DNA from: an uncultured Lentimicrobiaceae bacterium
Lineage (GTDB): Bacteria; Bacteroidota; Bacteroidia; Bacteroidales; DASVHX01
Direction of reading: 5' to 3'
DNA: 64,000 nt
NCBI GenBank assembly: GCA_964511085.1
Contig: CAZEDO010000004.1
Span: 1,642 to 65,641, forward strand
The translations under genes and the position numbers were made by a program. Under the pieces are notes generated by a model. It saw nothing but the letters and a program-made list of their open reading frames with translations, did not search any database and was not told where the DNA came from. Shown here piece by piece: positions 7,903 to 43,690 of the stretch (positions within the stretch are counted from its first letter, which is position 1; every line of letters begins with the position of its first letter).

Positions 7903-9543
7903 TTATGGAAATACCCTTTCGCCTCCCAGATAGGTATTCTCAACCTTAGTTTTAAGTATATCAATGGCAGATCCGTTTATAAGATCTGTATCCAGAATTA
8001 CAAAATCGGCATATTTACCCGGTTCTATACTTCCTTTTTTATTCTCCTCGAAAGCTGCCATGGCAGGCCAAATTGTAATACTACGCAGTGCATCCTCGCG
8101 GGAAAGAGCATTTTCGGATTGGAATCCACCAACAGGAAAACCATCTTTATCCATGCGAAAAACCGCTGAATAGAAAGTTAATAAAGGATTGATATGCTCT
8201 ATCGGAAAATCAGTACCATTAGGAATCCAGCCATTTTGCTGCATAAGTGTATGATATGCATAGGCATTTTTGACACGAACCTTCCCTAACCTATCTGCAG
8301 CCCAATACATATCGGAAGTTGCATGTGCGGCTTGCACGGATGGAATGATGGAATTATCCCCGAATAGATGTATGTCTGAAGGGTCAACTACCTGTGCATG
8401 TTCTATCCTCCATCTTTTATCGTTTTTTCCATTCAGTACAGATGCATACATCTTTAGAACTATTCTTACAGCTGAATCGCCAATGGCATGAGTATTCACC
8501 TGGTAACCATTTTCGAGTGCCAACCTGCATATACTTTGCATTGTTTCGATAGAACTAACAATCATTCCGCTATTGGAAGGTTCATCAGAATATGGATTAA
8601 GAAGGCATGCACCACGGGATCCCAGTGCACCATCAGCATAAAGTTTAATGGAACGGATACTCAGATGATCGGTAATCTTTGGTCCGTGATTAACAAAATG
8701 CAGTATGTTTTCGCTGCTTGGGTTCAGCATTGCATAAATCCTGATCCGAAGTTTGCCTGATTGCTGAAGCGTATCAATTAGTATGATCGTATTTTTATCC
8801 AGGCCGGCATCAGTAACTGAAGTTAATCCGGCTTCGAAACAGTTTTTTTCTGCCTGGGCTAATAAATTGTACAAATCTATGCCTTGCGGGCTTGGGATTG
8901 CCTGCCTAAGTTTATCAGCTGTGTTTTCGAGAAACACACCTGAGAATTTCCCGTTAACTAAAATCCCTTCTCCCTTTTTAACATCATCGATATTTTTAAT
9001 ACCGGCTAGCTTTATCGCTGAAGAATTAGCAAGCACTGCATGACCATCAATTCTGGTGAGGACAACCGGAGTATCAGGAAATAACTCATCCAGTTTCTGA
9101 TTGTCAGGGAAGTGTTTGTCCTGCCATTTGTTCTGATCCCATCCCCTGCCAACCAACCAGGCTGTGGGATGATTTGATGCATGTTTTTTGAGTAGTTCAA
9201 TCATTTCTGCCTCGGAAGCTGATGACGTAAGATCAGCGTATTCTAAATTAAGGGCATAACCATAGAAGTGTGCATGAGCGTCAATAAATCCGGGATAAAC
9301 AAATTTTTTGCCAGCATCAATTATTTCATGCGCTTCATAGCGGCTAACAATTTCAGATTCTCTGCCCACAGCAACAAACTTTCCACCGGAAACAGCAAAA
9401 CAATCACATTTGGAAAATTTAGCGTCAAGTGTATAAATCGTTGCATTACGGACTATGAGATCAACCATTACTTTCATCCCGGAGCTATTTAGATACATAG
9501 AAGAGAGAATCATCAAAACTATAATACTTATTTTTTTACGCAT
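7903..9543 (-). CDS. amidohydrolase family protein (YtcJ-like), secreted
   Basis: N-terminal signal peptide, metal-binding PGFIDAHAHF motif, and a 546-aa length typical of the family. Confidence 0.8.
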   Translation of the reverse strand: MRKKISIIVLMILSSMYLNSSGMKVMVDLIVRNATIYTLDAKFSKCDCFAVSGGKFVAVGRESEIVSRYEAHEIIDAGKKFVYPGFIDAHAHFYGYALNLEYADLTSSASEAEMIELLKKHASNHPTAWLVGRGWDQNKWQDKHFPDNQKLDELFPDTPVVLTRIDGHAVLANSSAIKLAGIKNIDDVKKGEGILVNGKFSGVFLENTADKLRQAIPSPQGIDLYNLLAQAEKNCFEAGLTSVTDAGLDKNTIILIDTLQQSGKLRIRIYAMLNPSSENILHFVNHGPKITDHLSIRSIKLYADGALGSRGACLLNPYSDEPSNSGMIVSSIETMQSICRLALENGYQVNTHAIGDSAVRIVLKMYASVLNGKNDKRWRIEHAQVVDPSDIHLFGDNSIIPSVQAAHATSDMYWAADRLGKVRVKNAYAYHTLMQQNGWIPNGTDFPIEHINPLLTFYSAVFRMDKDGFPVGGFQSENALSREDALRSITIWPAMAAFEENKKGSIEPGKYADFVILDTDLINGSAIDILKTKVENTYLGGERVFP

Positions 9544-9773
9544 AGAAATTCAGATAATCATTGGATATTTTCGCAAATTTAAGATTAATAACTACCTGAA
9601 GAAGTTACGTCCGAACATTATTCATCCAGGTTGGTTTAATTCTATTCATTCAATAAAATACAAAATGCACTTTGTTTCATTTGACAGTAATCACATTCTT
9701 ATCAAATAATAACAACGTGTACGCTATTTTTATACTTTTGTCATTTAGTCTCAATTTCATAATTCGCATTGTC

Positions 9774-10301
9774 ATGAACAAATCATTAATTACACCCAGG
9801 TTTCTTGTCATCATATCAGTTATTGCAGGAGCCGCATTTTTGAGGCTTATTCCACATTGGCCTAATTTTACGCCAATTGCCGGTATTGCTCTATTCGGAG
9901 GAACCTATTTGGTACGTAAACAACTGGCATTTATTATTCCTTTTGCAGCTATGCTACTTAGTGATCTCTTACTTGGTTTTCACCAAACTATGCTGGCTGT
10001 ATATACCAGTTTTGCACTTATTGTTGGCATAGGTCTTATATTGCGCGAGCGGGTTGGTATTTTCACAGTTGTCTCTGCTTCAGTTGTTTCTTCACTCGTT
10101 TTTTTTCTTGTCACTAATTTTGCTTCCTGGCAATCAGGTATGATGCCATATCCGATGAATTTCAACGGTCTGATTCAAGCCTATGCTGCCGGCCTCCCTT
10201 TCCTTAATAATGGCATACTTGGAGATCTTTTTTACAATTCAGTGTTTTTTGGTGGCTTTTACCTTGTGTCCCTGAAATTTCCTCAACTTGCTCGTTCATA
10301 A
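9774..10301 (+). CDS. small polytopic membrane protein (DUF6580-like, family call tentative)
   Basis: The ATG at 9774 (MNKSLITPRFLV...) begins the hydrophobic protein. The upstream extension to 9672 is AT-rich low-complexity sequence. Confidence 0.55.
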   Translation: MNKSLITPRFLVIISVIAGAAFLRLIPHWPNFTPIAGIALFGGTYLVRKQLAFIIPFAAMLLSDLLLGFHQTMLAVYTSFALIVGIGLILRERVGIFTVVSASVVSSLVFFLVTNFASWQSGMMPYPMNFNGLIQAYAAGLPFLNNGILGDLFYNSVFFGGFYLVSLKFPQLARS

Positions 10302-10474
10302 CCTTTATTTTATACTGAATCTTTGCGGTTTAAATTCGGCGAGCCTTTTAGTGTTGTAAAAGTAAAAGCTGCATAGATAAAATTATACCTGACGGTTATA
10401 GGCAATAAATATAATATGTTTTAGAACCATTGCACTTCTAAAATAATTTGTAAATCTAATCATACTCATCAACT

Positions 10475-12328
10475 ATGCCAGATGTAATCAGGCTTTTGCC
10501 CGATTCGGTAGCTAATCAGATAGCCGCAGGCGAAGTAATACAACGCCCAGCTTCAGCGGTTAAAGAACTTCTTGAAAATGGAGTTGATTCCGGAGCAACA
10601 GCAATACGGCTCAGTGTAAAAGAATCAGGGAAAAGCCTGATACAAGTTACAGATAATGGTAGTGGAATGTCAGAAACTGATGCCAGAATGAGTTTTGAGC
10701 GTCATGCTACTTCTAAAATAAAAGAAGCAAGCGATCTTTTCTCCATTCGCACACTAGGTTTTCGCGGTGAGGCTCTTGCTTCCATCGCAGCAATTGCACA
10801 GGTAGAACTTAAATCGCGTAAAGCCAATTCTGAATTAGGTACACGGCTGGAAATCGAAGGGTCCCAGGTAAAGAGCCAATCACCTTGCTCCTGCCCTGTC
10901 GGAACAACCGTTTCAGTGAAAAATTTATTCTTTAATGTCCCCGCCCGTCGTTACTTTCTCAAAACTGACACTGTCGAGTTGCGCCATATCATTGAGGAAT
11001 TTCAGAGGGTAGCATTGGTCAACCCTGAAATAGAATTTTCGTTCTATCAGAATGATAAATTAGTTTTTCAACTCGACCGCTCCACCCTAAGGCAGCGAAT
11101 CTCAGCAATCTTTGGGGCCCATCTTAACGAAAAGTTAGTTCCAGTGGAATTGTTGACGGATCTGGTTAATATTTCAGGATTTATTACTAAACCTGAATTT
11201 GTAAGAAAAACCCGTGGGGAGCAGTATTTTTTTGCAAATAATCGCTTTATTCGCCATCCATACCTTCATCATTCTGTGGAAAATGCCTATCAGGAGTTGA
11301 TCCCAGACGGTTCATTCCCTGTGTACTTCCTTTATATTGATGTTGATCCTCAAACAATTGACATCAATATCCATCCCACAAAAACGGAAGTTAATTTCCA
11401 GAATGGTCAGGTGATTTATGCTTCCTTACGTGCAGCAATAAAGCAATCGCTCGGAAAATTCAACCTTTCTTCAAGCATCGATTTTGAAAAAGAAACTTCT
11501 ATAGAAGTTAACTTCCCGGCAAACAGGCCAATAGTGCCTCCTACAATAAAAGTTGATCCTGATTTCAACCCATTTAAACGAGGGCAAGAGTCTATTCAAA
11601 GTGATAATCCAAGACCCGGAAACACACCAGAAAATTGGGAAAAGCTCTTCCCTCCTACCGGTGCAAGATCTCCAATGCATCCAAGCAGGCAATTTGAGGA
11701 TACTACTCCTGAACCTCGTCAATTAATCGAAGCGAATTTTGAAAAAACAGCTTTCAGTGATCCTTCACGCTCAATTATCCAGGTTCAAAACAAATTCATT
11801 GTTTCTAACGTTAAATCAGGGTTAGTTATCATTGATCAGCAACGTGCTCATGAACGCATTCTATTTGAAAAGTTTATGGATCGTATGGAGAAAACACATG
11901 TAGGGGCTCAACAGAGCCTTTTTCCACAAACAGTTCATTTGTCGGCAATTGATGCAGGAATTATTAACGATCTGCGTGAGGATATTAAGCACCTTGGTTT
12001 TGACTTAACAGAGTTTGGGCAAAATTCCTATGTTGTAAATGGCATTCCTGCTGATTTTCCTGATGAGGATGCTGGTACATTGCTGGAGAAAGTTATTGAA
12101 AACTTCAAAACAAACCGTTCAGCCTTAAACATTGATAAAAAGGTTAACTTAGCTCGTTCTTTAGCTCATAATCTATCGATAAGAAGTGGTAAATCCTTAC
12201 AGCCAGAAGAGATGCAAGTACTTGTAGGAGAACTTTTTGCATGCCGGATACCTGACTCCGCACCCGATGGAAGCCCGGCACTTAGAACAGTTTCCCTGGA
12301 CGAAATCGAGCGTCGGTTCAAATCATAA
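10475..12328 (+). CDS. mutL: DNA mismatch repair protein MutL
   Basis: GHKL ATPase N-terminus (IAAGEVIQRPASAVKELLENGVDSGAT, DNGSGM) and a C-terminal dimerisation region. Confidence 0.95.
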   Translation: MPDVIRLLPDSVANQIAAGEVIQRPASAVKELLENGVDSGATAIRLSVKESGKSLIQVTDNGSGMSETDARMSFERHATSKIKEASDLFSIRTLGFRGEALASIAAIAQVELKSRKANSELGTRLEIEGSQVKSQSPCSCPVGTTVSVKNLFFNVPARRYFLKTDTVELRHIIEEFQRVALVNPEIEFSFYQNDKLVFQLDRSTLRQRISAIFGAHLNEKLVPVELLTDLVNISGFITKPEFVRKTRGEQYFFANNRFIRHPYLHHSVENAYQELIPDGSFPVYFLYIDVDPQTIDINIHPTKTEVNFQNGQVIYASLRAAIKQSLGKFNLSSSIDFEKETSIEVNFPANRPIVPPTIKVDPDFNPFKRGQESIQSDNPRPGNTPENWEKLFPPTGARSPMHPSRQFEDTTPEPRQLIEANFEKTAFSDPSRSIIQVQNKFIVSNVKSGLVIIDQQRAHERILFEKFMDRMEKTHVGAQQSLFPQTVHLSAIDAGIINDLREDIKHLGFDLTEFGQNSYVVNGIPADFPDEDAGTLLEKVIENFKTNRSALNIDKKVNLARSLAHNLSIRSGKSLQPEEMQVLVGELFACRIPDSAPDGSPALRTVSLDEIERRFKS

Positions 12329-12348
12329 TATTGTATAAAAGATAAAAA

Positions 12349-13095
12349 ATGAGTTACGAACAATACAGACCCACAGGTTTCAGGGTGCTTCCGCCGGTAG
12401 TAAAGAACCTCCTTATTATTAACGGACTGTTTTTTCTGGCTACTATCTCTTTTGGAAGTGTCCTTAAAATCGATCTTACTGAAGTATTTGGACTGCATTA
12501 TTTTCAATCAGTCGCTTTCCGTCCGCACCAATTGGTCACATATATGTTTATGCATGGGAATTTTTCTCATATCCTTTTCAATATGTTCGCTTTATGGATG
12601 TTTGGGAATGTACTTGAAAACTTCTGGGGACCGAAAAGATTTCTGATCTATTACATGATTACGGGAATTGGTGCCGGACTTATCCAGTTATTAGTTATTT
12701 ATTTTCAGGTTTATTATGCTGAATTAAATTTAACAGCTGACCAGATTGCGCAGGTTCGTGAAACTGGATCCCAGATTATGCAGAACAACCAGAACTTTGT
12801 TGACCCTTTTATGGGAAAGCTTAATGCATTGTATAATATGACTACAGTAGGGGCATCCGGAGCTGTATTTGGATTGTTACTTGCTTTCGGAATGCTTTTC
12901 CCTAACACACTTATCTATATCTACTTTTTCATACCCATGAAGGCAAAATGGTTCGTTGTCATTTATGGTGTAATCGAGCTTTTTTCCGGCGTTTATAATA
13001 CAGGTAGTAACGTGGCTCACTTTGCCCATTTGGGAGGAATGTTATTCGGGTATTTTCTTATTGTTTATTGGAAGAAATACCCACATCAAAATTAA
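12349..13095 (+). CDS. rhomboid family intramembrane serine protease
   Basis: Polytopic membrane protein with the catalytic motifs GASGAVFG and HLGG. Confidence 0.85.
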   Translation: MSYEQYRPTGFRVLPPVVKNLLIINGLFFLATISFGSVLKIDLTEVFGLHYFQSVAFRPHQLVTYMFMHGNFSHILFNMFALWMFGNVLENFWGPKRFLIYYMITGIGAGLIQLLVIYFQVYYAELNLTADQIAQVRETGSQIMQNNQNFVDPFMGKLNALYNMTTVGASGAVFGLLLAFGMLFPNTLIYIYFFIPMKAKWFVVIYGVIELFSGVYNTGSNVAHFAHLGGMLFGYFLIVYWKKYPHQN

Positions 13096-24310: not shown

Positions 24311-24730
24311 ATGGCAAACAATATTACTTTTACTATGATTAAGCCAGATGCTGTTAAAAAAGGCAACATTGGCAATATATTAGCCCTTTTCAATAAAAGT
24401 GGATTCAAAATCTTAGGATTAAAGTATCTGCAAATTACTGAAAATCAAGCTAAACAATTTTACATTGTTCACAAAGAGCGACCTTTTTACAATGAACTTG
24501 TAGCTTTTATGTCGGAAGGGCCGATTGTTGCAGCCATTCTCGAAAAAGACAATGCTGTTGAAGATTTTCGCAAAGTAATTGGTTCTACCAATCCGGCTGA
24601 TGCAGCTGATGGAACTGTCCGCAAATTATATGGAGCCAGCATTCAAAATAATGCTGTTCACGGATCTGATAGTGATGAAAATGCCCAAATTGAAAGCGAT
24701 TTTTTCTTTTCAAAATTAGAAAGATTCTAA
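24311..24730 (+). CDS. ndk: nucleoside-diphosphate kinase
   Basis: 139 aa, [10 protein letters not shown]-terminus and active-site NAVHGSDS. Confidence 0.95.
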
Positions 24731-25299
24731 TTGCCAGGCGAATAGGCCACAAATGTATGATCATCGTATAACACTATGATCTGAGCAATACTGCCTTCTT
24801 TATTACTCTTCCTGCTAACAGTATCTTTTCGTGATTCATCTTTGAATGCTACCCTGGGCTGAGTTTTATCCTGCATAGGCTGATTTTCATCAATAGCGAG
24901 ATTAGCTTGCGTTTGCACACGGCTGTTTCCATTTTCAAGTGGATATTCCTGCTGTATTTCATAGATATTGGCTTCCGCCACAACTGAAGGAGCTTGATTA
25001 AGTATTTCATCCTTAGGCAAAGTTTCATAGTCAGGCTTCAGTTTATCCGTATTTTCCAATGATCGTGTCTGAGAATCAAAAAGATTAAGTTCCCTTACCA
25101 TTTCTCCTTTTCCGAATAATAACCATTCAGAACTCACTTCGGGAAACCTTTGAAGGGTTTTCTGTATCAGATCGAGGCTTGGTTTATTTCTACCCGACAT
25201 CAGGTGTGAGATACTTGAACGTTGCACACCAATTTCATCGGCAAATTGTGCAGCCGATAAATTTTTGGCTTTTATAAGCAATGAGATGCGATCAGTCAT
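24727..25299 (-). CDS. XRE-family helix-turn-helix transcriptional regulator
   Basis: N-terminal HTH ([30 protein letters not shown]). The C-terminal ~120 aa are unassigned. Its stop overlaps the ndk stop by 4 nt (convergent genes). Confidence 0.75.
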
Positions 25300-25357
25300 A
25301 GGGTTGAAGTATTACATTCTTATACAACAAAAGTAACACATATTGTAACAAGTCATA

Positions 25358-25365
25358 CAAATGTA
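25358..25365 (-). promoter_or_regulatory. Bacteroidota -7 promoter box TACATTTG (TAnnTTTG) upstream of the XRE gene
   Basis: The reverse complement of CAAATGTA is TACATTTG, about 60 nt upstream of the ATG at 25299. Confidence 0.35.
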
Positions 25366-25658
25366 GTAATCATAAATTCTTTTACTAGCTGGTGTGTTAA
25401 TATTGTTAATTACATTAAGTAAAGGCTTATGTAAAGTTATCTAAATGATTGAATATATTATATATACATATATTTATATTATATATTTTTCATTTATATC
25501 AGTTTATATACTATAATTGAAGTAATAATATATATAAGTTATATAAACTACTGAATATAAGATAATAAACTCTTTTTGATAGGTCTAATTTCATTTGGTT
25601 TACATATGTGATTTATTGACGCCAGTCTTACTGAAACAAATAGACAAAAATTTTTCGT

Positions 25659-25746
25659 TACATTTGTATGTTGTAAATGATAAGTTATATATTATGAGCT
25701 ATATAACTATATTGCCTGTGTAACAGTCATCCATTTGTTACATTTG
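25659..25746 (+). promoter_or_regulatory. two TACATTTG boxes flanking the inverted repeat AGTTATATA-N8-TATATAACT
   Basis: The boxes are at 25659-25666 and 25739-25746, each embedded in GTTACATTTGTA (inverted half-sites TTACA/TGTAA). The inverted repeat spans 25683-25708. Confidence 0.3.
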
Positions 25747-26057
25747 TAAATTACAATTGTTATTTCGTTACTTTTCTGTAATAATATGTCATATCACAAT
25801 TGATGTTTACTTTCTCACTGCAGTATATATTTTATTGTTGAACTTCATTTTTATGACTGTCCATAAGTGCCCATAGCTAAGATATATGAGACTTTTTTCA
25901 GGCGGAGTCATAAAACCTCTACAATTTATGATCAATCTCTAATTATTTATCTTTTTAGTGTTATAGATTCTTTTGTTCCGAGTAAGTATGACAAATCAAC
26001 AAAATCAATGCTTCTGTATTCTTTTCAGTATCTCTGGCATGTAGGAGCGTTATTTAT

Positions 26058-26089
26058 TTTGGACTTTGCTGTATAAAATTGTACATTTG
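26058..26089 (+). promoter_or_regulatory. candidate promoter of the plus-strand zinc-ribbon genes
   Basis: TTTG at 26058-26061 and TACATTTG at 26082-26089 have the spacing expected for the Bacteroidota -33/-7 consensus. The site is about 95 nt upstream of the ATG at 26183. Confidence 0.4.
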
Positions 26090-26182
26090 CTACACTCTCC
26101 CATTATATCCTTTTGCTTTTGTTGGAATTACTAAATAGAAAAATAACTATTAATTAATCATTAACCACAAAACAAAACGCTT

Positions 26183-26986
26183 ATGAAATTCTGTCCGAAT
26201 TGCGGTGCAGAGCTGAAACCGGAAGCCAAATTCTGTGCAGCCTGCGGAACACCAATTGCAATAACAACACCTCCGCCTGTGCAGCCAATGGCTCAGCCCC
26301 AAGCCTATTATCAGCAGCAGGATCTTGGGTATGAACAAGCTAAAGATGCTACAAGTGCCTTTAGAGATGCTGTTACAGGTAATACAAACCTGATGCAGCG
26401 TGTTATCGGTATTATAATCAAACCTAAGCAGGAATGGAATGTAATAGCGGGAGAACAGCCAAACGTAATGAAACTGATCGGCGGATATGCATTGATTCTC
26501 GCATTAATACCTGCAGTTTCTGCTTTTATTAAATATGGAATTATCGGTTTTTCTTTCATGGGATATACATCCCGGAGCATTTCATCAGGAATTCAAACAG
26601 GGCTTATACAATTACTCTCAGCAGTTATAGGAGTTTATTTGCTGGCATGGGTAATTGATCTGCTGGCTCCTTCATTTGATTCAGAAAAAAACTTCGGACG
26701 GTCTCTACAGTTGGCAGTGTATTCATCTACACCGCAATGGGTTGCCGGAATTCTATTGCTTTTGTCCACCAGCATGAGTATGCTTATTATGCTATTCGGG
26801 CTTTATGCTATTTACCTGCTAGCTGTTGGAATGCCTGTATTGAAAAGAACACCGAGGGAGAAAGTTGTTGGATATGTGATAGTAACGATTATTGCAATGG
26901 TGGTTATTGCACTCGTGATGGCACTAATTATGGCTGCAATTGTGGGACTTTTCATTGCAGGCAGTTATGGCGGTTCGGGATTATAA
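26183..26986 (+). CDS. zinc-ribbon protein fused to a Yip1-like polytopic membrane domain
   Basis: N-terminal MKFCPNCGAELKPEAKFCAACG, a P/Q-rich linker, then about five hydrophobic helices resembling Yip1/DUF1282-type domains (call from memory). Confidence 0.7.
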   Translation: MKFCPNCGAELKPEAKFCAACGTPIAITTPPPVQPMAQPQAYYQQQDLGYEQAKDATSAFRDAVTGNTNLMQRVIGIIIKPKQEWNVIAGEQPNVMKLIGGYALILALIPAVSAFIKYGIIGFSFMGYTSRSISSGIQTGLIQLLSAVIGVYLLAWVIDLLAPSFDSEKNFGRSLQLAVYSSTPQWVAGILLLLSTSMSMLIMLFGLYAIYLLAVGMPVLKRTPREKVVGYVIVTIIAMVVIALVMALIMAAIVGLFIAGSYGGSGL

Positions 26987-27095
26987 ACCAATCTGCAAGT
27001 TGCCTGCATAGTTACATACCTTTTCTTTTAATACTATTTCTTCAGAAAATCTTCTGAAAGGCTTTTGTTCCTAGACTATTTAAAACTTTTTTGCC

Positions 27096-28490
27096 ATGAA
27101 ATTTTGCCCTCAATGCGGAACGACATTTGACACTGGGGTTCGTTTCTGCCAGGAATGTGGTTTCGACAGATCAACCGTTGAAACTGCTGAAGAAACGATG
27201 ACCAATACATCAGGAAATAATAGTGCTGAAACACTGCCTACCGCTTCTGTTACAGCGCAAGTTACAGCAGTCCATCCGGAAGTTAAACCTGGTTGTCCTA
27301 AATGCGGCAGTAACCTGGTTTCGGGCGATCGTTTTTGCCAGGAATGCGGCTTCGATACAACCGGTATCATTGCGCCCGGGCATGAAGTTTTTGAACCGCC
27401 CCAACCGAATGTGGATGATAAAGTCATCGCTACTGCATCTCTGGAGAAGGAACCTGTTTCATTATTAGAAAAAAAGCAATTTTGTCCGCAATGTGGAACA
27501 ACCATTACTTCCGGCGACCGTTTCTGCCCTGACTGTGGTTTTGATACAGTGACAGATCAATCTACCGGCGAAATAAAATCCAGTTCTGCTGATCAGCAGA
27601 AGGTAGTTCCCAAACCTGAACCTACAGCAGCTCCAACTCAAAAACATAAAAAGGTAATTCCCCCTGCTGCAACTGCTTATGCACCACCAGCGAGTCCGGC
27701 TAAACCTGTAGCTCAACAGAAAAGCAAGAAGCTGTGGTTATGGATTGCACTTATTGTTATTGGGGTAGGCGCTCTTGGGACCGCAGGGTGGTTTGGATAT
27801 AACAGGTATATCGCTGCGCCAAAAGAGAGTTCTGTTGATACTGTTGCAAAAGCTGTTGTCCAGGAAATTGCTGTCCCTGATACAAGTTCAATAAAGACCG
27901 AAGTTTCAGAACCTGCTGTAGAAGCTTTACCAGAGCAGACTGTAGCAAGTATTAAACCTCCTGAAAGAATTAATAAGGAAATTGCAAAGCCAAAAAGTAA
28001 ACAGCAAACAAAAGCGGCACAGCCAAACAAACCAACACAAGAACCTGCAACTCCAACACAGCAATCAAAGCCCGATTTAGGAATAAAAGCGATCTCTTTC
28101 AATACAGGCAACAATCACATTTCTAAGGTAATTATGGAAGTAGGCCGGAAAGATGATTCAAAAAATAAGAGCCCTAAAAATCCAACACGGATAACAATCA
28201 GTGAATCTACGATGGTTGTCCGGATTACCACTGATCACTATAATGGAGGATCGGGAACAGCTACAGCAGGAAGTATCTCGATAAAAGGTGAAAATGGAAA
28301 CGTGATAGGGACCTATAAAGCAATTGGAAACGGGGGCAAAAATGGAGTTCCAAATTCAAAATGGGTAGCTGAACCAAAAATTTTACTTGCGAAAGGAACT
28401 TACTTTATCTGGGACTCCGATATGGGAACATGGTCGAAAAATATACTTGGTGTTGGCTTTGTTATGGTGGAAGGATATGAGATTCCTTAG
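27096..28490 (+). CDS. triple zinc-ribbon, single-pass membrane protein with a small beta-rich C-terminal domain
   Basis: Three CPxCG-x8-RFCxxCGFD modules (aa 4-24, 67-88, 129-150), a TM helix LWLWIALIVIGVGALGTAGWFGY, a long P/Q/K-rich linker, and a ~130-aa C-terminal domain of unknown type. Confidence 0.7.
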   Translation: MKFCPQCGTTFDTGVRFCQECGFDRSTVETAEETMTNTSGNNSAETLPTASVTAQVTAVHPEVKPGCPKCGSNLVSGDRFCQECGFDTTGIIAPGHEVFEPPQPNVDDKVIATASLEKEPVSLLEKKQFCPQCGTTITSGDRFCPDCGFDTVTDQSTGEIKSSSADQQKVVPKPEPTAAPTQKHKKVIPPAATAYAPPASPAKPVAQQKSKKLWLWIALIVIGVGALGTAGWFGYNRYIAAPKESSVDTVAKAVVQEIAVPDTSSIKTEVSEPAVEALPEQTVASIKPPERINKEIAKPKSKQQTKAAQPNKPTQEPATPTQQSKPDLGIKAISFNTGNNHISKVIMEVGRKDDSKNKSPKNPTRITISESTMVVRITTDHYNGGSGTATAGSISIKGENGNVIGTYKAIGNGGKNGVPNSKWVAEPKILLAKGTYFIWDSDMGTWSKNILGVGFVMVEGYEIP

Positions 28491-28611
28491 AATTCAGGGA
28501 TTCGGACTTTATTATTGACTCAGATAACGAAATAAAAAATATCATCACTAAATAAGAAATCTATTCAACTTCTTTAACCATCTGGTATTAACAAATTTTA
28601 AAATATAAACA

Positions 28612-29487
28612 ATGGCATTTTGTAGCAATTGCGGAGCCCGGCTAATAGAGGGTGCAGTATTCTGTCCTGAATGTGGGACAAAAAATTCTTTCAATACTAC
28701 TCCTGTGCAACAAACACAGACACAACCTCATGTCCCACCTCCTGTTCCGCAACAACCGGCATATCAACCTCCGCCACAGCCGGAGAGAGTTGCGATACAG
28801 TTTGGAGCATTAAAATTTGAGGTGGTTGAAAAAGAAACTTTAAAATTCCTGAAAGTTGAATTTGATAATAATGCTGTCCGTTACGAATCGGGTGGCATGT
28901 ATTATATGCAGGGCAACCTTGAACTGGAGGCTAATCTTCCATCAGCAGGTGGTTTTCTGAAATCGATGGTCACACGTGAAAGCGTGGTTAAGCCAGTGAT
29001 AAAGGGAAGCGGAACTGTTTGGTTCGAACCTACATTTGGCAATTATACAATAATGGACCTCAAAGGAGAAGAATGGATACTTGACAAAGGTGCTTACTTT
29101 GCTTCGGAAATGGGCATCGAAATAGGTTCGTTTACCAACAAATCAATTTCAGGACTTTTCTCCGGTGAAGGTTTTTTTCAAACAAAAGTTTCAGGTGCAG
29201 GCAAAATTGTGATATTATCAAACGGACCACTGGAAACGATAGAGCTAAATAACGGCAAACTTGTTGTTGATGGTTCCTTTGCAGTAGCAAGGCAGGCAAG
29301 TGTTCAACTTACTGTTGCAAGAGCCAGCAAAGGCATGTTTGGGTCTATGATTTCGGGCGAAGGCATTGTAAATACCTTCACGGGAACCGGAAAAGTACTT
29401 ATTGCACCGGCTGCTAACAAGTATATTACTATGATCAACTATTTATCGAGCATCCATCAGAGGGTGATGCAGATTAAGAATTCCTGA
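28612..29487 (+). CDS. zinc-ribbon protein fused to an AIM24/DUF124-like domain (no TM predicted)
   Basis: N-terminal MAFCSNCGARLIEGAVFCPECG, a P/Q-rich linker, then ~220 aa with AIM24-like patterns (GGMYYMQGNLELEA, GEGFFQTKVSGAGKIVILSNG, LVVDGSFAVA). Confidence 0.7.
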   Translation: MAFCSNCGARLIEGAVFCPECGTKNSFNTTPVQQTQTQPHVPPPVPQQPAYQPPPQPERVAIQFGALKFEVVEKETLKFLKVEFDNNAVRYESGGMYYMQGNLELEANLPSAGGFLKSMVTRESVVKPVIKGSGTVWFEPTFGNYTIMDLKGEEWILDKGAYFASEMGIEIGSFTNKSISGLFSGEGFFQTKVSGAGKIVILSNGPLETIELNNGKLVVDGSFAVARQASVQLTVARASKGMFGSMISGEGIVNTFTGTGKVLIAPAANKYITMINYLSSIHQRVMQIKNS

Positions 29488-29515
29488 CACACCAATTCAA
29501 CCTCCTTTAAACGTA

Positions 29516-29560
29516 AAACCGCTTGTCCGATTTGAATCAGACAGGCGGTTTCACTTTTTG
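29516..29560. terminator. hairpin terminator shared by the convergent zinc-ribbon gene blocks
   Basis: 12-bp stem AAACCGCTTGTC / GACAGGCGGTTT (one G-U pair), followed by a T-rich tract. Confidence 0.55.
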
Positions 29561-29608
29561 CTTAAGCATATAAAACACATATTTCTGAAACACATTTGCT
29601 GTAAAAAA

Positions 29609-37793: not shown

Positions 37794-40700
37794 TTAAGTT
37801 TTATACCCGCATTTACCACAGAACTTAGCACCCGGTTTAAAAGGAACGCCACACTGGGGGCAAAATTTCGGGGATGGTGGAATTTCAGGAGCGTTCTGAC
37901 CATCGCGGCTAACCGGAGTAAACTGAGGTTGGGAAACAGGTGAAGGTTGAACAAAGGGGTCCTGAGTTTGAAGGACATGCGGTGTAGGTGTCTTTGCACT
38001 TTTCCGCCTGCGCCGGACTATAATAATTACAACAATAACGATCAAGATACCTCCAAGCCCCGAACCGATGTAAACAAGCATATTATTATCCATTATATTC
38101 AGAACCATTTTTTCTGCCGGTATGATGTTGACCTGCGGATTCACCGGCAATTCATTCATTGCTTTTGTGGCAAGTCCAGTGGCTTCTTTTAGCGATTTTC
38201 CGTTATCAGCTGCTTGGGATGCAGTTTTATTAAACTCTGCAGCAAGTTTTGGATTCCGGGGATCTGCAGCCACAGCAATACTCAATACAGCAAGCTGCTC
38301 AGAATATTCCCTGCATTTCGAAACATTTTCGAAAAGAGCGGCAGCTTCTTCGGGTTTGGTAAACGCCAGTCGGTTGATAGCCGACATATTTTCCTCCATC
38401 CAGTTTTCGAGCTGGGCTGAATTGGCAAACACTGCATTCAATCCATTAACTGGCAACCCTTTTCCCGAATATTTCAGCTGATCATCATTGGGAACTGAAA
38501 GGTTTACCGGGGCAATCCTGCCCGGCGCAGCTGCATAAGCGGATGCGAAAAGCGAAGATTCATGCACATCCACTGAAGTGGTATTCATATTTCCCTGGGC
38601 AATGCACTTGTTAGAATATACGAACGACGATAATACTTCAGCCCACAAATTATTGAGGCGGTACAATTCCAATGCAAAACCTCCTGCTGTGAAAGCAGTT
38701 CCAATGGCACTTTTACCTTCATCCAGTTTTTTAAAATGATTGGGTATAGAAGTCCAGTTACCGCTATATGCATCCACAATTAGCACAATAGATTTTACGA
38801 CCAGGTCGATGCCCAGATCGATATAGGCTTTCAGCATTTCGGCACCGTAACGCCAGGCAGCCACACTGCTGTAGTATGCCCGTAATTCAGTTGAGCGGTC
38901 GCGTAGCGCAGGTCGCAAGTTCGTGTAAACCAGATGGACATTTTCGGGCGATTGGTTAAAAAAATTGATAATTTCATTTTTCATCGAACTGTAATACGCC
39001 GCCTGTATAGCTTCTTTAATTTTATCCGGAATATAATCGGTAACGGCTTTCTTGGTTTCCTCCACATATTTTGACCCTTTTTCGTAAGTGCCCTTAACAC
39101 TTGTTGGGACCACATAGGTTGCAAGGGTTTCGGAAATGGCTTCGGATAATTGTTCCCATACCTTTCCTGCTACTTCACCACCCAAATCGCCAAGCAGTTT
39201 GTAATAAGTAGCTGATGCTTTGGCTTTGTCCGCATTTTTGGCTCCTTCGGGCAGAACCGTTTCAGCAAAGAAATACTGGATAATTTTTTTGGTTCCATAC
39301 TTATAGTCATCCTTGCCCAAAGCGGATTTCCAGAACGAATTCTCGTAATGCAGACCCAACTTTCCGAGCGAATCGCAAATTTTGTCAATATTATCAAGCC
39401 CGGTTTTTTCCTTTACCTTTTTTCCATACTCACCAAGTTTTTCCGATACTTTGTCAAGCTTCATCTTCTTATACAGTTTGTCCGTTATTTTCCATTTGTT
39501 ATTTGCAAATTCGGCTGTCGTTTTCATCAGTTCCCAACCCTGGCTGATCAGTTCATCCTCAGTGTCTTTCATAAGTTTGTCGCCGGTATTGGCATTTACC
39601 ATGAGCATGCCGATCAGGTGCAGTTTTTCCTCGGTCATTACTGCTTTTTCATGGTTTTGAATACACAGGTCCTTATCAATATGAAATAATCTGTTTATAA
39701 TCTGAAATGTGAATTCCTCATCATTAAACTGGCTGAGTGTCTTGCCCAGTTCTCCCTTTCTTCTACCTGTAAGGTCAGATAGCTTTGCTTCCAATGGTTC
39801 CACTTTTATCTTACGACCACCGGGTCTGCCGACATCAAGTTTAAATTTGCCGGCAGCATCAGTAAAAGCCATGAAAGCGCCTCCTTTGATATTCATATTA
39901 GTAATAAAATTTTTCCTCTCTTTTTTGTAATAAAAATCATACTTCTTGTTAAAATTATCTTCATCAAAATCTTTTCTTTCAACCATTATAACTGCATCAT
40001 TTACATCTATTTTCTCAGGAATTGAAGGAGAACTTATCATTTGCACCAAGGCAAAAATAGTGCTCTCGAAAGTGTAATCTTCAAGCTGAGGAAGCAGGAC
40101 TTTTATCGGTTTAGTCTCGAAACCGGGTTTCAGAATCCGGATATTTTTTTCAATGGTTTTATAAACTGCAAAATCGGTATAAACCGATTCATTTTGCCGT
40201 TTTGGCGTACTGAAGTTCACCGAAATCCGAAAAAGGCTGCTATTATCAATAATCTGTCCCCATTTATCCCCGCGTTCCTCTCTGGTGGCTTTAAGCACAG
40301 GCATCTGGATAACAGCTATTGCATTTCCCAAAGCATTGGTGGTATTTTGAGCCGAGATTACTTTGAATTCTGTGGGAATTTGCCATCTGATCTTTATCCC
40401 TGACACCGGAACTTTATTTGCATCTGCATAATGAAAAATGGCTTTTGTCTGGGAGCGCCCGTCACCGATAAGTTCATTCTGTTCAATTGTTACATATACT
40501 TCCTCCTTGATTTGTGATTCCGGAGTAGTTGAGGATGTAGTTCCTCCGGAGGAGATTTCTTTTGGTCTTCCCTGGTATTCGAATAAAATGGGAGGTATAT
40601 AGGTAAAAATGCCATTGTTGGGCATGGGCAGGTAGATGGATGGAAGCCCGTCTTTACGAACATCGTAGCCTTCCATATATTTCATATCGCGTTCCGAAGC

Positions 40701-41462
40701 TCCCATGTATAAATTCATCCATTCGCCACCGCCCATCATTTTTTGCATAGCTGAATTGATTTCCGCTGATTTTTCGTTTGTAAACAGCACCGTCATAGGA
40801 TCGTTACCGCTTTGAGTCATTTGTCCTTTGCCGCCACTTTCGAGGATAAGTTCGAAAGGCGCCTGTCCTGTAATATCGTAACCTGAATAATACCCCGGCA
40901 CAATGGAGCTGTTTCCGCCTTCAGTAGCTTTAACGATCTGTATTTTCGTTTTTCCCTTTACACCGTTCATTTCGCAAACGAAGTAGGCAAAGTTGTCATT
41001 GTCTTTTTTGGGAATAAGGGTAAGCGGATTGATGCCTTCCTTAAAAGTTTCGAGGGCTATTTTTCCGGCCAGTTTCTGGTTCGACTCCATGTCAGTAGAT
41101 CCATTAGAGCGGGAAAGGAATTTCCGAATGAATTTCACTATAAAATACACCATTCGCTGGGCAGCTTTTATGGGTTGCCCGAAAATAGGAGCTGTATATT
41201 TTGTATAGGCTATCCCGTTTACCATTTTCAGTTCCGATTCGTCGAGAAATCCTGCGCTCGTGCGCAACACCACTGTTCCATTCATGGTGGGAATAATCTC
41301 GCCCTCGGCATCACGTGCTGTTACAACAATTGTCGTATAATCGTCGCCATCGCCAATAAGTTCGGCTTTGCTCCCCTGTACATGCAGCCTGAATGCAGGC
41401 TGCTGTGCTGATGCCACTACCGTCATCAGCAATACCAAACAAGTATATATGAATGTCTTCAT
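37794..41462 (-). CDS. 1222-aa signal-peptide protein with Ig-like repeats, a large unassigned region, TM helix and C-terminal zinc ribbon
   Basis: Signal peptide MKTFIYTCLVLLMTVVASAQ. Two Big_1-like segments (ELIGDGDDYTTIVVTARDAEG, ELIGDGRSQTKAIFHYADAN). CarboxypepD_reg-like FTDAAGKFKL. TM GILIVIVVIIIV followed by RRRRK, a P/Q linker, and FCPQCGVPFKPGAKFCGKCG. Confidence 0.7.
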   Translation of the reverse strand: MKTFIYTCLVLLMTVVASAQQPAFRLHVQGSKAELIGDGDDYTTIVVTARDAEGEIIPTMNGTVVLRTSAGFLDESELKMVNGIAYTKYTAPIFGQPIKAAQRMVYFIVKFIRKFLSRSNGSTDMESNQKLAGKIALETFKEGINPLTLIPKKDNDNFAYFVCEMNGVKGKTKIQIVKATEGGNSSIVPGYYSGYDITGQAPFELILESGGKGQMTQSGNDPMTVLFTNEKSAEINSAMQKMMGGGEWMNLYMGASERDMKYMEGYDVRKDGLPSIYLPMPNNGIFTYIPPILFEYQGRPKEISSGGTTSSTTPESQIKEEVYVTIEQNELIGDGRSQTKAIFHYADANKVPVSGIKIRWQIPTEFKVISAQNTTNALGNAIAVIQMPVLKATREERGDKWGQIIDNSSLFRISVNFSTPKRQNESVYTDFAVYKTIEKNIRILKPGFETKPIKVLLPQLEDYTFESTIFALVQMISSPSIPEKIDVNDAVIMVERKDFDEDNFNKKYDFYYKKERKNFITNMNIKGGAFMAFTDAAGKFKLDVGRPGGRKIKVEPLEAKLSDLTGRRKGELGKTLSQFNDEEFTFQIINRLFHIDKDLCIQNHEKAVMTEEKLHLIGMLMVNANTGDKLMKDTEDELISQGWELMKTTAEFANNKWKITDKLYKKMKLDKVSEKLGEYGKKVKEKTGLDNIDKICDSLGKLGLHYENSFWKSALGKDDYKYGTKKIIQYFFAETVLPEGAKNADKAKASATYYKLLGDLGGEVAGKVWEQLSEAISETLATYVVPTSVKGTYEKGSKYVEETKKAVTDYIPDKIKEAIQAAYYSSMKNEIINFFNQSPENVHLVYTNLRPALRDRSTELRAYYSSVAAWRYGAEMLKAYIDLGIDLVVKSIVLIVDAYSGNWTSIPNHFKKLDEGKSAIGTAFTAGGFALELYRLNNLWAEVLSSFVYSNKCIAQGNMNTTSVDVHESSLFASAYAAAPGRIAPVNLSVPNDDQLKYSGKGLPVNGLNAVFANSAQLENWMEENMSAINRLAFTKPEEAAALFENVSKCREYSEQLAVLSIAVAADPRNPKLAAEFNKTASQAADNGKSLKEATGLATKAMNELPVNPQVNIIPAEKMVLNIMDNNMLVYIGSGLGGILIVIVVIIIVRRRRKSAKTPTPHVLQTQDPFVQPSPVSQPQFTPVSRDGQNAPEIPPSPKFCPQCGVPFKPGAKFCGKCGYKT

Positions 41463-41464
41463 GG

Positions 41465-41680
41465 CTATTTTTTTTCGAAATAATCTGGAATGTCGTTATA
41501 CTCCTTTTCAACAGCTGACTTTTTAGGCCAGCTTTGATACACGTAATATCCTATTGTTCCAAGCACCAGGCCAAGAAGCAATAACAGGATCATGCTGCAC
41601 CCAAAGCAGCATCCGCGTTTTTTCTTTTTCTTAGGGGGAATGGTATCCAGAACAGGATCAGTGGGTTGTTGCTGCATCAT
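41465..41680 (-). CDS. small Cys-rich single-pass membrane protein, first gene of the minus-strand block
   Basis: 71 aa: KKKKKRGCCFGC followed by a TM helix. Its stop is 2 nt before the start of the 1222-aa gene. Confidence 0.45.
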   Translation of the reverse strand: MMQQQPTDPVLDTIPPKKKKKRGCCFGCSMILLLLLGLVLGTIGYYVYQSWPKKSAVEKEYNDIPDYFEKK

Positions 41681-41998: not shown

Positions 41999-43690
41999 TT
42001 AATATTTTATCACTTTTTTAACCCACTTATTACTTCCTGTCTGGACAGAAAGGATATAAACCCCGGAAGTAAGATTTGCAAGGCCATCAATAACAATTTT
42101 GCCATTTCTATTGGAAAAATAAGATTTCTCAAAAACCTTTTTTCCATTAATAGATTCTAAAGCAACCATTGTAGTCTTGTTTAATACCGATGCTGACTGA
42201 AGTTCAATAGAAAAGCCTGATTTAAAAGGATTTGGCGATATCAGGATGTCGTTTCCAAAATTCTTATCATTATTTTCATTAACCGATAGTAGAATATTTG
42301 CTGCTGCATAGTCAGGAATACCATAGCCTAACAATGAATCAGGATTTGAAGACTGGCTGCCACTTTGTTGGAGTGCGTTAATTATCTCCATATTAGAATA
42401 GTTGCTATGTGCCTGCCACAAACAAGCAGACATTCCTGCAATTATGGGCGACGAGAAAGATGTTCCACTGCCAAATGAAACACCGTCACTCAAATCGGCA
42501 ACGGCAGCAGGAGAACCTTGCGATACAATATTTGGCTTTATCCTTCCATCATAAGTTGGACCTGTAGAACTGAAAAATGCGTAGAATCCCTGCGGATCAA
42601 CAGCTCCAATAGAAAAAACACTATCCCCATCTGCAGGAGCTCCAATGTAATGCCATGCATCTGAACCAGAATTGCCGGCACTATTTACAACAAGAATCCC
42701 CTTTTGGGCAGCCATATCAGCTCCAATTGTGACTGGTGTTGTATTGCCATCCATATCAGCATATGTATGATTCTCAGCAGGATTATCAAATTCAGTATAT
42801 CCAAGTGAAGAATTAATAACGTCGGCTCCAACGCTGTCAGCAAATTCAGCGGCGTTCACCCAATAATACTCCTCCATGAGCGACTCTGAAGTTGCATCTT
42901 CTGAGCGAAGCAGCCAGAACGAGGCTTTAGGGGCCGTTCCAATAATTTGCCCTGGCATGTTTCCTCCAATCGTAGAAAGCACCATCATGCCGTGTGAACT
43001 GATCCCTGTGTTAAAAACATTATTATTAGCTTCAACAAAATCATGGGTTCCCAATATCTGATTGTTAGCCCATAGGCTGTCGAAAGCATGTAAAACATCA
43101 GCGCTATTGAACCCTGCATCAATTACGGCTATCGTCATCCCCTCACCTCTGTAGCCCATATCGTGCAACTGAATCCCCGATAACATATTTATCTGGTTAT
43201 ATGCCGCGCCATAGTCATAAGAAGCCCCTCTCTTGACACTCCCTGGCGATAGTAACTGATTATAGGATTTGTAAGTTTCGTTGTTGAAAAACGACTTCCC
43301 TGAATTTTTTTCGGTTGATGTTGCTGCATTAACTTTAAATTCCTGAATATCAGAGACAAAAGGCAATGACGAAGCCTTGTTAAAAAAATCCGGATTGCCT
43401 GATTCAACAATGATCGTATTCAACCATTTGGATTGATAAACTACTTTCGCACCTGTGCCGCTTATTGCTGTAAGATAATCTGCTGACACAGGCATATCAG
43501 TGTAATTGATTGCAATGCCATGTTTTGCTCTTCGCTCAATTGCTTTTGCAGAAAGGAAGCTCTCAGGCTGAGAAAGGCTTTTCGCAGATGCCTTTTTATC
43601 TTTAAATTTCAGGATGTACTTATTAGGTGATGTTTGTGCTGATAGCTGCATGGAGATCACGAGCAACGAGATAGTAAGTATTCTGGACAT
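41999..43690 (-). CDS. S8 family serine peptidase (subtilase) with T9SS C-terminal sorting domain
   Basis: Signal peptide. Catalytic triad contexts AVIDAGF, SHGMMVLS and GTSFSSP. The ~80-aa C-terminus has a Por/T9SS type A pattern (SPNPFKSGFSIEL ... GVYILSVQT). Confidence 0.85.
   Translation of the reverse strand: MSRILTISLLVISMQLSAQTSPNKYILKFKDKKASAKSLSQPESFLSAKAIERRAKHGIAINYTDMPVSADYLTAISGTGAKVVYQSKWLNTIIVESGNPDFFNKASSLPFVSDIQEFKVNAATSTEKNSGKSFFNNETYKSYNQLLSPGSVKRGASYDYGAAYNQINMLSGIQLHDMGYRGEGMTIAVIDAGFNSADVLHAFDSLWANNQILGTHDFVEANNNVFNTGISSHGMMVLSTIGGNMPGQIIGTAPKASFWLLRSEDATSESLMEEYYWVNAAEFADSVGADVINSSLGYTEFDNPAENHTYADMDGNTTPVTIGADMAAQKGILVVNSAGNSGSDAWHYIGAPADGDSVFSIGAVDPQGFYAFFSSTGPTYDGRIKPNIVSQGSPAAVADLSDGVSFGSGTSFSSPIIAGMSACLWQAHSNYSNMEIINALQQSGSQSSNPDSLLGYGIPDYAAANILLSVNENNDKNFGNDILISPNPFKSGFSIELQSASVLNKTTMVALESINGKKVFEKSYFSNRNGKIVIDGLANLTSGVYILSVQTGSNKWVKKVIKY

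Follow-up and report, generated by a model that had tools for sequence, protein, structure and literature searches.

Why would bacterial envelope proteins with unrelated domains, encoded next to one another, display the same small zinc ribbon? The question is raised by a cluster of ten open reading frames (ORFs; A to J, Table 1) at positions 26183-41680 of a 64-kb stretch of DNA (hereafter the window; contig CAZEDO010000004.1 of assembly GCA_964511085.1) from the metagenome-assembled genome of an uncultured Lentimicrobiaceae bacterium. Three of the ORFs (A, B, and C) lie on the plus strand and seven (J, I, H, G, F, E, and D) on the minus strand, and seven of the ten encode the ribbon. An earlier reading made from the letters alone (the sequence-only reading), which had drawn attention to the cluster, counted 11 proteins in it, whereas the ORF listing gives 10 (A to I and the 71-aa J). 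We find that the A-J locus is a conserved Bacteroidota envelope unit, mainly of Bacteroidales and present in about 50 species-level genomes; that its core, made up of A, B, C, and usually E, is constant and its clients (J-I, H, G-F, and D) are interchangeable; and that the ribbon is confined to the cluster and not general among nearby membrane proteins. The explanation that we tentatively favor is that an AIM24/Yip1 inner-membrane platform uses the tethered ribbons in the cytoplasm to gather lipolytic and adhesive proteins that face the periplasm.

A six-frame scan of the whole window with the pattern CxxCG-x10-CxxCG returned exactly 11 ribbon modules, all of CX2C-X10-CX2C spacing and all within positions 26192-37862. 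They are distributed over A (one), B (three), C (one), D (one, C-terminal), G (two), H (two), and I (one, C-terminal), which are the seven proteins that the sequence-only reading had named. Its count of 11 stood, but the strict form that it gave for the module, with Phe before the first cysteine and Lys/Arg-Phe before the third, fits only 8 of the 11; in B, G, and H, the second ribbon has Gly, Leu, or Ile in the position of the leading Phe. If only non-overlapping ORFs of 80 aa or more are counted, the ribbon is carried by 7 of 9 in the cluster versus 0 of 44 in the rest of the window (Fisher p = 2e-7). When scored against the Pfam models Zn_Ribbon_1 and DZR (PF13240 and PF12773; gathering cut-off 25 bits), the ribbons reached 37.6 bits in A, 57.1 in B, 31.6 in C, 28.5 in D, 44.0 in G, and 42.9 in H, while that of I, at 22.6 bits, fell just under the cut-off and was matched in all 12 of the I orthologues.

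Is the cluster a unit beyond this one genome? Species representatives of GTDB were scanned with an alignment of the fusion of zinc ribbon and AIM24 (ZnR-AIM24) found in C, which yielded 79 loci, and gene order was tabulated for 50 distinct Bacteroidota loci, mostly metagenome-assembled genomes of Bacteroidales (including Lentimicrobiaceae, Prolixibacteraceae, Draconibacterium, and Mariniphaga) along with one Lutibacter. In all 28 loci that hold the complete set of A, B, and C, the three genes are collinear; A, the first gene of this core triad, has orthologues in 30 of the 50 loci and is always upstream of B and C. The most conserved member is C, with 60-90% identity among the Bacteroidales loci. 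The other genes occur in 29 (E), 21 (I), 18 (J), 12 (F), 11 (G), 5 (H), and none (D) of the 50 loci, and some of them travel in pairs: J immediately precedes I in 19 of 25 cases, and the gene just before F is G in 13 of 14. Homologues of the lipase H with 42-79% identity sit in the same neighborhood in three other assemblies, and H is kept next to E in a distant genome (L009). The genes flanking the cluster vary from genome to genome. The collinear triad bears out the suggestion of the sequence-only reading that these genes belong together. The ZnR-AIM24 fusion also occurs outside Bacteroidota (e.g., in Firmicutes and Acidobacteria) without the cluster, and no conserved partner was seen around AIM24 or ZnR-AIM24 in Firmicutes, Acidobacteria, or Verrucomicrobia.

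The restriction of the ribbon to the cluster recurs across genomes. In 51 related loci, 183 of 303 ORFs within cluster spans bear a ribbon against 5 of 402 in the flanks (466 kb), an odds ratio of 121 for which any p-value is illustrative only because the loci are phylogenetically related; four of the five ribbon-bearing flank ORFs are themselves cluster-linked members of a second cluster variant. A general spread of the module over neighboring membrane proteins is thus not what is seen.

The ribbons also fall into conserved, family-specific flavors. Outside the cysteines, ribbons are 68% identical between orthologues and about 40% identical between families, whether these are compared within a genome or across genomes. 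Those of E, G, H, I, and D share a basic flavor, xFCxKCGNxLKPxA[KR]FCGKCG, with a net charge of +1.6 to +4.3, and the net charge is -1.4 (acidic) for the B repeats, -0.7 for C, and +1.2 for A. A more specific version of our proposal takes these flavors for an address code, by which an AIM24-Yip1-(ZnR)n platform, itself bearing ribbons of distinct acidic or neutral flavors, would recognize and capture those inner-membrane proteins that the basic client flavor marks. We regard this version as possible though doubtful.

Table 1. Features of the ribbon cluster and of its immediate surroundings (positions in the window; TM, transmembrane; HTH, helix-turn-helix; T9SS, type IX secretion system)
Feature	Positions	Strand	Length	Ribbon modules	Description
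HTH gene	24727-25299	-			Xre-type HTH protein (HTH_3)
Region 5' of A	25300-26182		880 nt		AT-rich intergenic region
A	26183-26986	+	267 aa	26192-26248 (N-terminal)	P/Q-rich linker, Yip1 multi-pass domain
B	27096-28490	+	464 aa	27105-27161, 27294-27350, 27483-27539	TM helix, C-terminal beta-rich domain (28119-28487)
C	28612-29487	+	291 aa	28621-28677	P/Q-rich linker, AIM24 domain
Hairpin	29513-29554				G+C-rich, between convergent C and D; probably a bidirectional terminator
D	29609-30907	-	432 aa	29624-29680 (C-terminal, basic)	Signal-like N-terminus, periplasmic FecR region, TM helix, basic patch
E	31011-31763	-	250 aa (TTG start) or 239 aa (ATG start)	none	Four TM helices
F	31827-33935	-	702 aa	none	N-terminal anchor or signal, helical zinc-phospholipase-C-like domain (about residues 30-330), beta domains
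G	33937-34647	-	236 aa	34582-34638, 34468-34524	TM helix, 118-aa periplasmic domain without recognized fold
H	34669-37764	-	1031 aa	37699-37755, 37585-37641	TM helix, large periplasmic PGAP1-like alpha/beta serine hydrolase
I	37794-41462	-	1222 aa	37806-37862 (C-terminal)	Signal peptide, Big_1/invasin-D3 Ig-like domains, TM helix, R/K patch
J	41465-41680	-	71 aa		Single-pass membrane protein; its gene opens the minus-strand operon
S8 peptidase gene	41999-43690	-		none	Serine peptidase with T9SS type A sorting domain

How did so many proteins of one locus come to carry the module? The 5' ends of G and H (34508-34647 and 37625-37764) form a 140-nt direct repeat of 86% identity that encodes the first ribbon of each protein, after which the two genes diverge abruptly. 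At the protein level, the first ribbons of G and H are 96% identical within a genome and 54% across genomes (n = 3), so that the module is copied or converted locally, and the repeat suggests gene conversion or a recent duplication of the ribbon module. On E, the ribbon has been gained or lost without loss of E itself: it is N-terminal in most genomes, C-terminal in L004, and absent in the window.

Such copying is what would be expected if each ribbon were an autonomous, highly stable zinc-bound cap that serves the stability or orientation of its own protein, with no common partner, on a co-regulated set of envelope proteins through which the module spread by duplication or gene conversion. 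The occurrence of E with or without a ribbon fits this explanation, as does the commonness of proteins with an N-terminal ribbon and a TM helix (ZnR-TM) in other phyla (L074-L089), and for Lactococcus lactis the Cys-Zn complex was found to be very stable, the authors suggesting a role in protein stability (PMC4628341). An autonomous cap does not, however, explain why B has up to 7 repeats. Also against it are the ribbon on the soluble C, the keeping of the flavors by family over 50 genomes, and the lack of a ribbon in 397 of the 402 neighboring ORFs, many membrane proteins among them. We therefore see it as a doubtful explanation with a real, if minor, chance of being correct.

On which side of the membrane would the ribbons lie? 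Topology was judged heuristically by the positive-inside rule from the numbers of Lys and Arg residues flanking the TM helix. These counts (before versus after the helix) are 4 versus 2 in B (helix at residues 213-231), 6 versus 0 in G, 7 versus 2 in H, 1 versus 6 in D (331-349), and 1 versus 6 in I (1130-1148), with signal-like helices at the N-termini of D and I. In every single-TM protein, the ribbon is on the side rich in Lys and Arg, and ribbons are predicted to be cytoplasmic in all cases, in agreement with the sequence-only reading; between them and either the membrane or the globular domain lies a P/Q-rich stretch of 40-75 residues. Since the soluble C also bears a ribbon, the module is not merely a topology determinant. 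The description of the locus as a trans-envelope system was overstated, because all of its parts have their anchor in the inner membrane and the cluster showed no component of the outer membrane.

A cytoplasmic ribbon joined to a periplasmic domain could in principle be a sensor that reads cytoplasmic zinc or redox state, so that zinc lost under oxidative stress would turn the periplasmic domains on or off. Redox switches built on Cys4 zinc sites are known, as in Hsp33 and RsrA, and most hosts of the cluster come from anoxic habitats according to database records. Still, a single TM helix and a long disordered linker would make a poor conformational conduit, E can dispense with its ribbon, and the same motif is oxidant-stable in L. 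lactis (PMC4628341); we consider a sensor very unlikely.

Among the core proteins, A matches Pfam Yip1 (PF04893) with 73 bits (cut-off 28.6) over residues 75-245 and has four to five hydrophobic segments. C matches Pfam AIM24 (PF01987) with 156 bits over profile positions 1-204 of 205, and its relatives in the Protein Data Bank (PDB) include 1PG6 (E = 4e-15) and 1YOX (E = 1.5e-14); the match to TIGR00266, at 72 bits, is under the equivalog cut-off of 96.6. No TM helix is predicted in C, which is consistent with a soluble, cytoplasmic protein, as had been proposed. Together with FecR in D, PGAP1 in H, and Big_1 in I (below), these matches confirm the domain calls of the sequence-only reading (Yip1, AIM24, FecR, lipase-like hydrolase, and Ig repeats).

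B runs from three acidic ribbons (three Zn_Ribbon_1/DZR stretches in Pfam) through its TM helix and a low-complexity periplasmic linker to a 123-aa domain, and its orthologues have 1 to 7 ribbon repeats. Neither the C-terminal domain of B nor the periplasmic domain of G has a Pfam match at E up to 1. The 123-aa domain of B has 1657 representative relatives (cluster representatives) and is often repeated in large extracytoplasmic proteins, for which reasons it looks like a mobile binding module and appears to be an unnamed, widespread extracytoplasmic module. In these proteins, which are up to 3921 aa long, it is often present in two or three copies, alongside PPC, PAN, He_PIG, or LCCL domains.

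The AlphaFold2 (AF2) model of E, with a mean predicted local distance difference test score (pLDDT) of 86.7, shows the four TM helices together with a cytoplasmic beta-sandwich of six or seven strands and a C-terminal helix. Most of the 170 homologues of E are about 295 aa long and include a PF13240 ribbon, and 31 of 34 gave weak matches to DUF2207_C. A Foldseek search of the PDB with the model returned nothing significant and no match below E = 0.5. Some homologues are annotated by JGI as "YdbS with pleckstrin-like domain"; E has no Pfam match to the bacterial pleckstrin homology (PH) family of YdbS/YdbT-like proteins, and its Foldseek matches to PH domains all have E above 1.

Of the clients, H matches Pfam PGAP1 (PF07819) with 29.3 bits (cut-off 24.3). 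In 20 homologues down to 27% identity, the nucleophile elbow H504-S505-M-G507-G508 and H728 are invariant and D701/D725 conserved, and since the catalytic residues are kept in this way, H is probably an active serine hydrolase. In L004, the H orthologue is split into at least four consecutive ORFs (9377-12466, GCA_964268525.1), indicating a pseudogene or assembly errors.

F itself has no match in Pfam, and its 402 homologues are annotated as "hypothetical". Of 40 homologues compared with Zn_dep_PLPC (PF00882), 24 gave weak matches that fall below threshold (best E = 0.0036), and the putative metal motif H239-x3-D243-x5-H249 is invariant in the homologues, which makes F, like H, look like an active enzyme. 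When the AF2 model of F (pLDDT 83.5) was searched with Foldseek, the sole high-probability match was the alpha-toxin of Clostridium perfringens (1CA1, probability 0.98), with a low global TM-score (0.20 by query and 0.33 by target) because the F model has several domains. These matches suggest that F is a divergent, putative zinc-phospholipase-C (PLC)-like protein. Alignments to beta-galactosidases, which dominated the search with the whole F model, were rejected as spurious. From the near-constant position of the ribbon-bearing G immediately upstream of the ribbon-less F, G may be the adaptor of F and is a putative membrane adaptor for it.

I matches Pfam Big_1 with 44.5 bits, and its 12 orthologues all match Invasin_D3 as well as the ribbon. 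Its middle region of about 700 aa, largely helical, is without assigned identity, and its C-terminal ribbon is strongly basic. J, which is 73% identical to J of L004, is a putative small partner of I. Sequence searches of the PDB with F, H, and I found nothing useful apart from ribbon look-alikes such as those of ribosomal eL40 and eS31. Residues 343-375 of PDB 9sfa chain A, a 386-aa "putative regulatory protein", form a terminal ribbon, CPACSVEVQAGAKFCHECG, that resembles the client flavor and might serve as a template for structural work or hint at a partner.

D matches Pfam FecR with 50.5 bits and has no homologue in any other sampled locus. Compared with the components of FecR trans-envelope signaling, it has the FecR domain only, with a signal peptide at its N-terminus and the ribbon at its cytoplasmic C-terminus, and the cluster holds no sigma factor or TonB receptor. 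FecR anti-sigma signaling by D was accordingly rejected as a candidate, D being unique to this genome. For the same reason, a sensor domain, which the sequence-only reading had included among the periplasmic functions, is not a feature of the system.

How could these parts work together? We propose that the locus encodes an inner-membrane protein assembly centered on an AIM24/Yip1 platform. The core would comprise the ribbon-bearing Yip1 protein A, the acidic-repeat protein B with its periplasmic binding domain, the soluble ZnR-AIM24 protein C, and usually the four-TM protein E. The clients would face the periplasm: the serine lipase/esterase H, the PLC-like F on its adaptor G, the giant Ig-like and helical I with J, and, in this genome only, D. 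Displayed in the cytoplasm on flexible P/Q-rich tethers, the ribbons would be putative protein-protein docking modules that join basic-flavor clients to the core and also bring AIM24 (C) to the membrane. A core with exchangeable clients, all showing a tethered ribbon down to the soluble C, is best explained if the ribbon is an assembly handle; docking, the docking partners, and the physiological role are what we infer from this arrangement. Given that the clients include a serine lipase and a PLC-like enzyme, maintenance of the envelope lipids and membrane is the most economical role, and the likely output would be maintenance or remodeling of envelope lipids and membrane architecture. We rate this lipid role lower than the assembly-handle and platform model itself.

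Several points weigh against the proposal. Clients do not strictly need the core nearby: the H-E pair is found without the A-B-C triad in distant genomes, and in L091 (9267-12106, GCA_013390605.1) the G-F pair stands alone between two ECF-sigma/FecR/SusC/SusD polysaccharide-utilization loci, with no triad within 10 kb. A scaffold stoichiometry, with B repeats matching the number of client ribbons, failed, as the two numbers are uncorrelated (Spearman rho = 0.04). The synteny may be partly inherited, nearly all loci belonging to one order, and the basic character of membrane-adjacent ribbons could be a mere effect of the positive-inside rule. As for a role in lipid remodeling, it is suggested solely by the enzyme activities predicted for two of the variable members and by analogy to yeast Aim24.

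The second cluster variant (L048-L057) has no match to A or B and keeps C, E, and G-F or similar pairs; in it, a ZnR-TM adaptor with periplasmic Sel1 repeats adjoins a secreted protein. In L048 (4417-9994) and L056 (2637-8507), adjacent genes start with near-identical double ribbons, NCPKCGNKLNEGALFCGSCGEKIIQQ being present twice in L048. This variant bears on the idea that the ribbon is a sorting tag, by which the Yip1-like A and AIM24 would pick tagged proteins for a membrane subdomain or for vesicles, as in the vesicle biogenesis of eukaryotic Yip1. A single client flavor distinct from the core flavors, a Yip1-family protein that is constant in the main variant, and clients that remain tagged elsewhere in the genome (L091) all agree with sorting. 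Support for it is by analogy only, however; no GTPase, coat, or dynamin-like gene is found in the cluster, and the second variant gave no match to A and yet keeps C, E, and tagged clients. Sorting therefore strikes us as quite improbable.

Related loci hold recurrent genes that are absent from the window. A lipoprotein of 217 aa and a membrane protein of 150 aa are each encoded in 23 loci, a Tll0287-like lipoprotein of 196 aa that contains a CxxCH motif in 16, and a radical-SAM/SPASM enzyme in 5; such genes are seen at L016 10959-13374, L073 10954-14067, and L055 3952-6346 and in about 20 other loci. They may extend the set of accessory members, or they may form a module that is embedded here but unrelated.

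Could the locus instead be a conflict system, for anti-phage defense, abortive infection, or antagonism? In such a system, the lytic H and F would be silent until the ribbons sensed a trigger, with E or G providing immunity or control. Effector-like modules indeed come and go (H in 5, F in 12, and I in 21 of the 50 loci), typical toxins include lipases and phospholipases, a constant core surrounded by variable cassettes recalls conflict systems, and a gene for an Xre/CapH-like HTH protein lies upstream in the window. Against this stand the high conservation of the core (C above all), the variability of the HTH neighbor between genomes, the cluster's lack of any nuclease, NTPase, or protease sensor, and the anchoring of the enzymes in the membrane where they face the cell's own periplasm, with no secretion apparatus or T9SS sorting domain. 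No ATPase, kinase, secretion, defense, or phage-shock-protein (Psp) component was found among the cluster proteins with Pfam, NCBIfam, and PADLOC, as the sequence-only reading had also noted for most of these classes. No NCBIfam family was above cut-off for any cluster protein; PADLOC-DB 2.0 gave them nothing but two marginal low-complexity matches (E = 0.003-0.008), CapH-like models being matched by the neighboring HTH protein only; and viral contigs yielded no relative of C. PspA/Snf7, SPFH (band-7), and TPM domains are likewise absent from the 10 proteins, and the T9SS sorting domain TIGR04183 is matched by no cluster protein and only by the adjacent S8 peptidase. We hold a conflict system to be unlikely.

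On the minus strand, the spacers from J to D are 2, 29, 21, 1, 63, and 103 nt; the first five had been given correctly by the sequence-only reading, and the 103-nt gap is that between E and D. The hairpin that it had placed where the convergent operons meet is real, with a predicted folding energy of -27.1 kcal/mol and z = -4.24 (0 of 200 shuffles as good). A scan for sigma-70-type promoters and terminators was not above shuffled expectation, and Rfam gave no match in the whole window at gathering thresholds. Bacteroidota-type TAnnTTTG motifs, which are weak evidence, lie upstream of A and J only. The intergenic region 5' of A is unusually long and has a GC content of 0.25; within it, TACATTTG occurs three times (at 25659, 25739, and 26082) and fits TAnnTTTG, the Bacteroidota -7 promoter consensus. 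The HTH gene beyond it, whose product has a weak CapH-like PADLOC match and a 120-aa C-terminal region of unassigned nature, overlaps the 3' end of a convergent ndk-like gene with its own 3' end by 4 nt and is not kept beside the cluster in other genomes. At the other end, the S8 peptidase gene lies directly upstream of J's operon and outside the conserved gene set.

AIM24, bacterial Yip1, and the PF13240 ribbon on membrane proteins are each widespread, and the cluster joins all three in one conserved unit. To our knowledge, none of them has a known function in bacteria. Through the cluster, a role of the ribbon as a docking handle, with flavors that can be told apart, becomes testable, and the cluster offers natural experiments in the form of members with and without a ribbon, B proteins with 1 to 7 repeats, and clients that move in and out. 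If the handle model is true, it would explain how Bacteroidales organize periplasmic lipolytic enzymes on the inner membrane and might explain why a zinc ribbon stands at the start of so many bacterial single-pass proteins. Even if the model is wrong, F, G, E, and I are new families defined by the cluster, along with the C-terminal domain of B. Should the ribbons prove to be an address code, this would be a new bacterial way in which enzymes that face the periplasm are assembled and exchanged on a scaffold in the cytoplasm, and the first function for bacterial AIM24 and Yip1, parallel to AIM24 scaffolding at mitochondrial and endoplasmic reticulum (ER) membranes.

Which known systems does the locus resemble? 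Small adaptor domains shared by different proteins are known from dockerin-cohesin pairs and from the effector-associated domains of conflict systems. As in these, a small domain is repeated on unrelated proteins of one locus, and B with its multiple copies is scaffold-like; unlike them, the ribbon has a different fold and a different compartment, the cytoplasmic face of the inner membrane, and no receptor domain was identified in the cluster. A second parallel is with the AIM24 scaffolds of eukaryotes, and we know of no bacterial AIM24 whose function has been established. Yeast Aim24 stabilizes MICOS and is linked to cardiolipin remodeling (PMC3975624), and the plant AIM24-family proteins PAWH1/2 stabilize the Hrd1 complex of ER-associated degradation (PMC10203443). 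In these cases as here, AIM24 is found within a set of membrane proteins, and here it is the most conserved member and lies beside lipolytic enzymes; the eukaryotic proteins differ in having no zinc ribbon and unrelated partners.

The closest analogues are llmg_0524-0526 of L. lactis and the membrane-stress operon pspA-ydjGHI of Bacillus subtilis. In llmg_0524-0525-0526, the identical CX2CX10CX2C motif is at the cytoplasmic N-terminus of two membrane proteins of the same operon, and was shown experimentally to bind zinc; the operon is linked to envelope integrity (PMC4628341). That operon, unlike the cluster, is Gram-positive, has three genes and no AIM24, Yip1, lipase, or PLC-like domain, and no shared partner was proposed for its ribbons. 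In B. subtilis, several products of the one operon likewise have CX2C...CX2C ribbons, YdjG having two and a TM helix and the SPFH protein YdjI/YdjL a C-terminal one (PMC11237479). There, YdjG and YdjH, both membrane proteins, are required to bring the soluble YdjI to the membrane, and together the proteins influence the integrity of membrane and envelope (PMC8581546). The cluster, by contrast, has no PspA, SPFH, or TPM protein, its soluble member is an AIM24 protein, its clients are periplasmic enzymes, and tagging is far more extensive (7 of 10 genes). These published analogues make the ribbon-handle model plausible without proving it. Our full-text literature searches found no account of an AIM24-Yip1-zinc-ribbon cluster, in keeping with the view of the sequence-only reading that the locus matches no described system. 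What is already precedented is that several members of one membrane operon share a cytoplasmic ribbon; what is new are the partner domains, the extent of tagging, the flavors of the ribbon, and the organization into core and clients.

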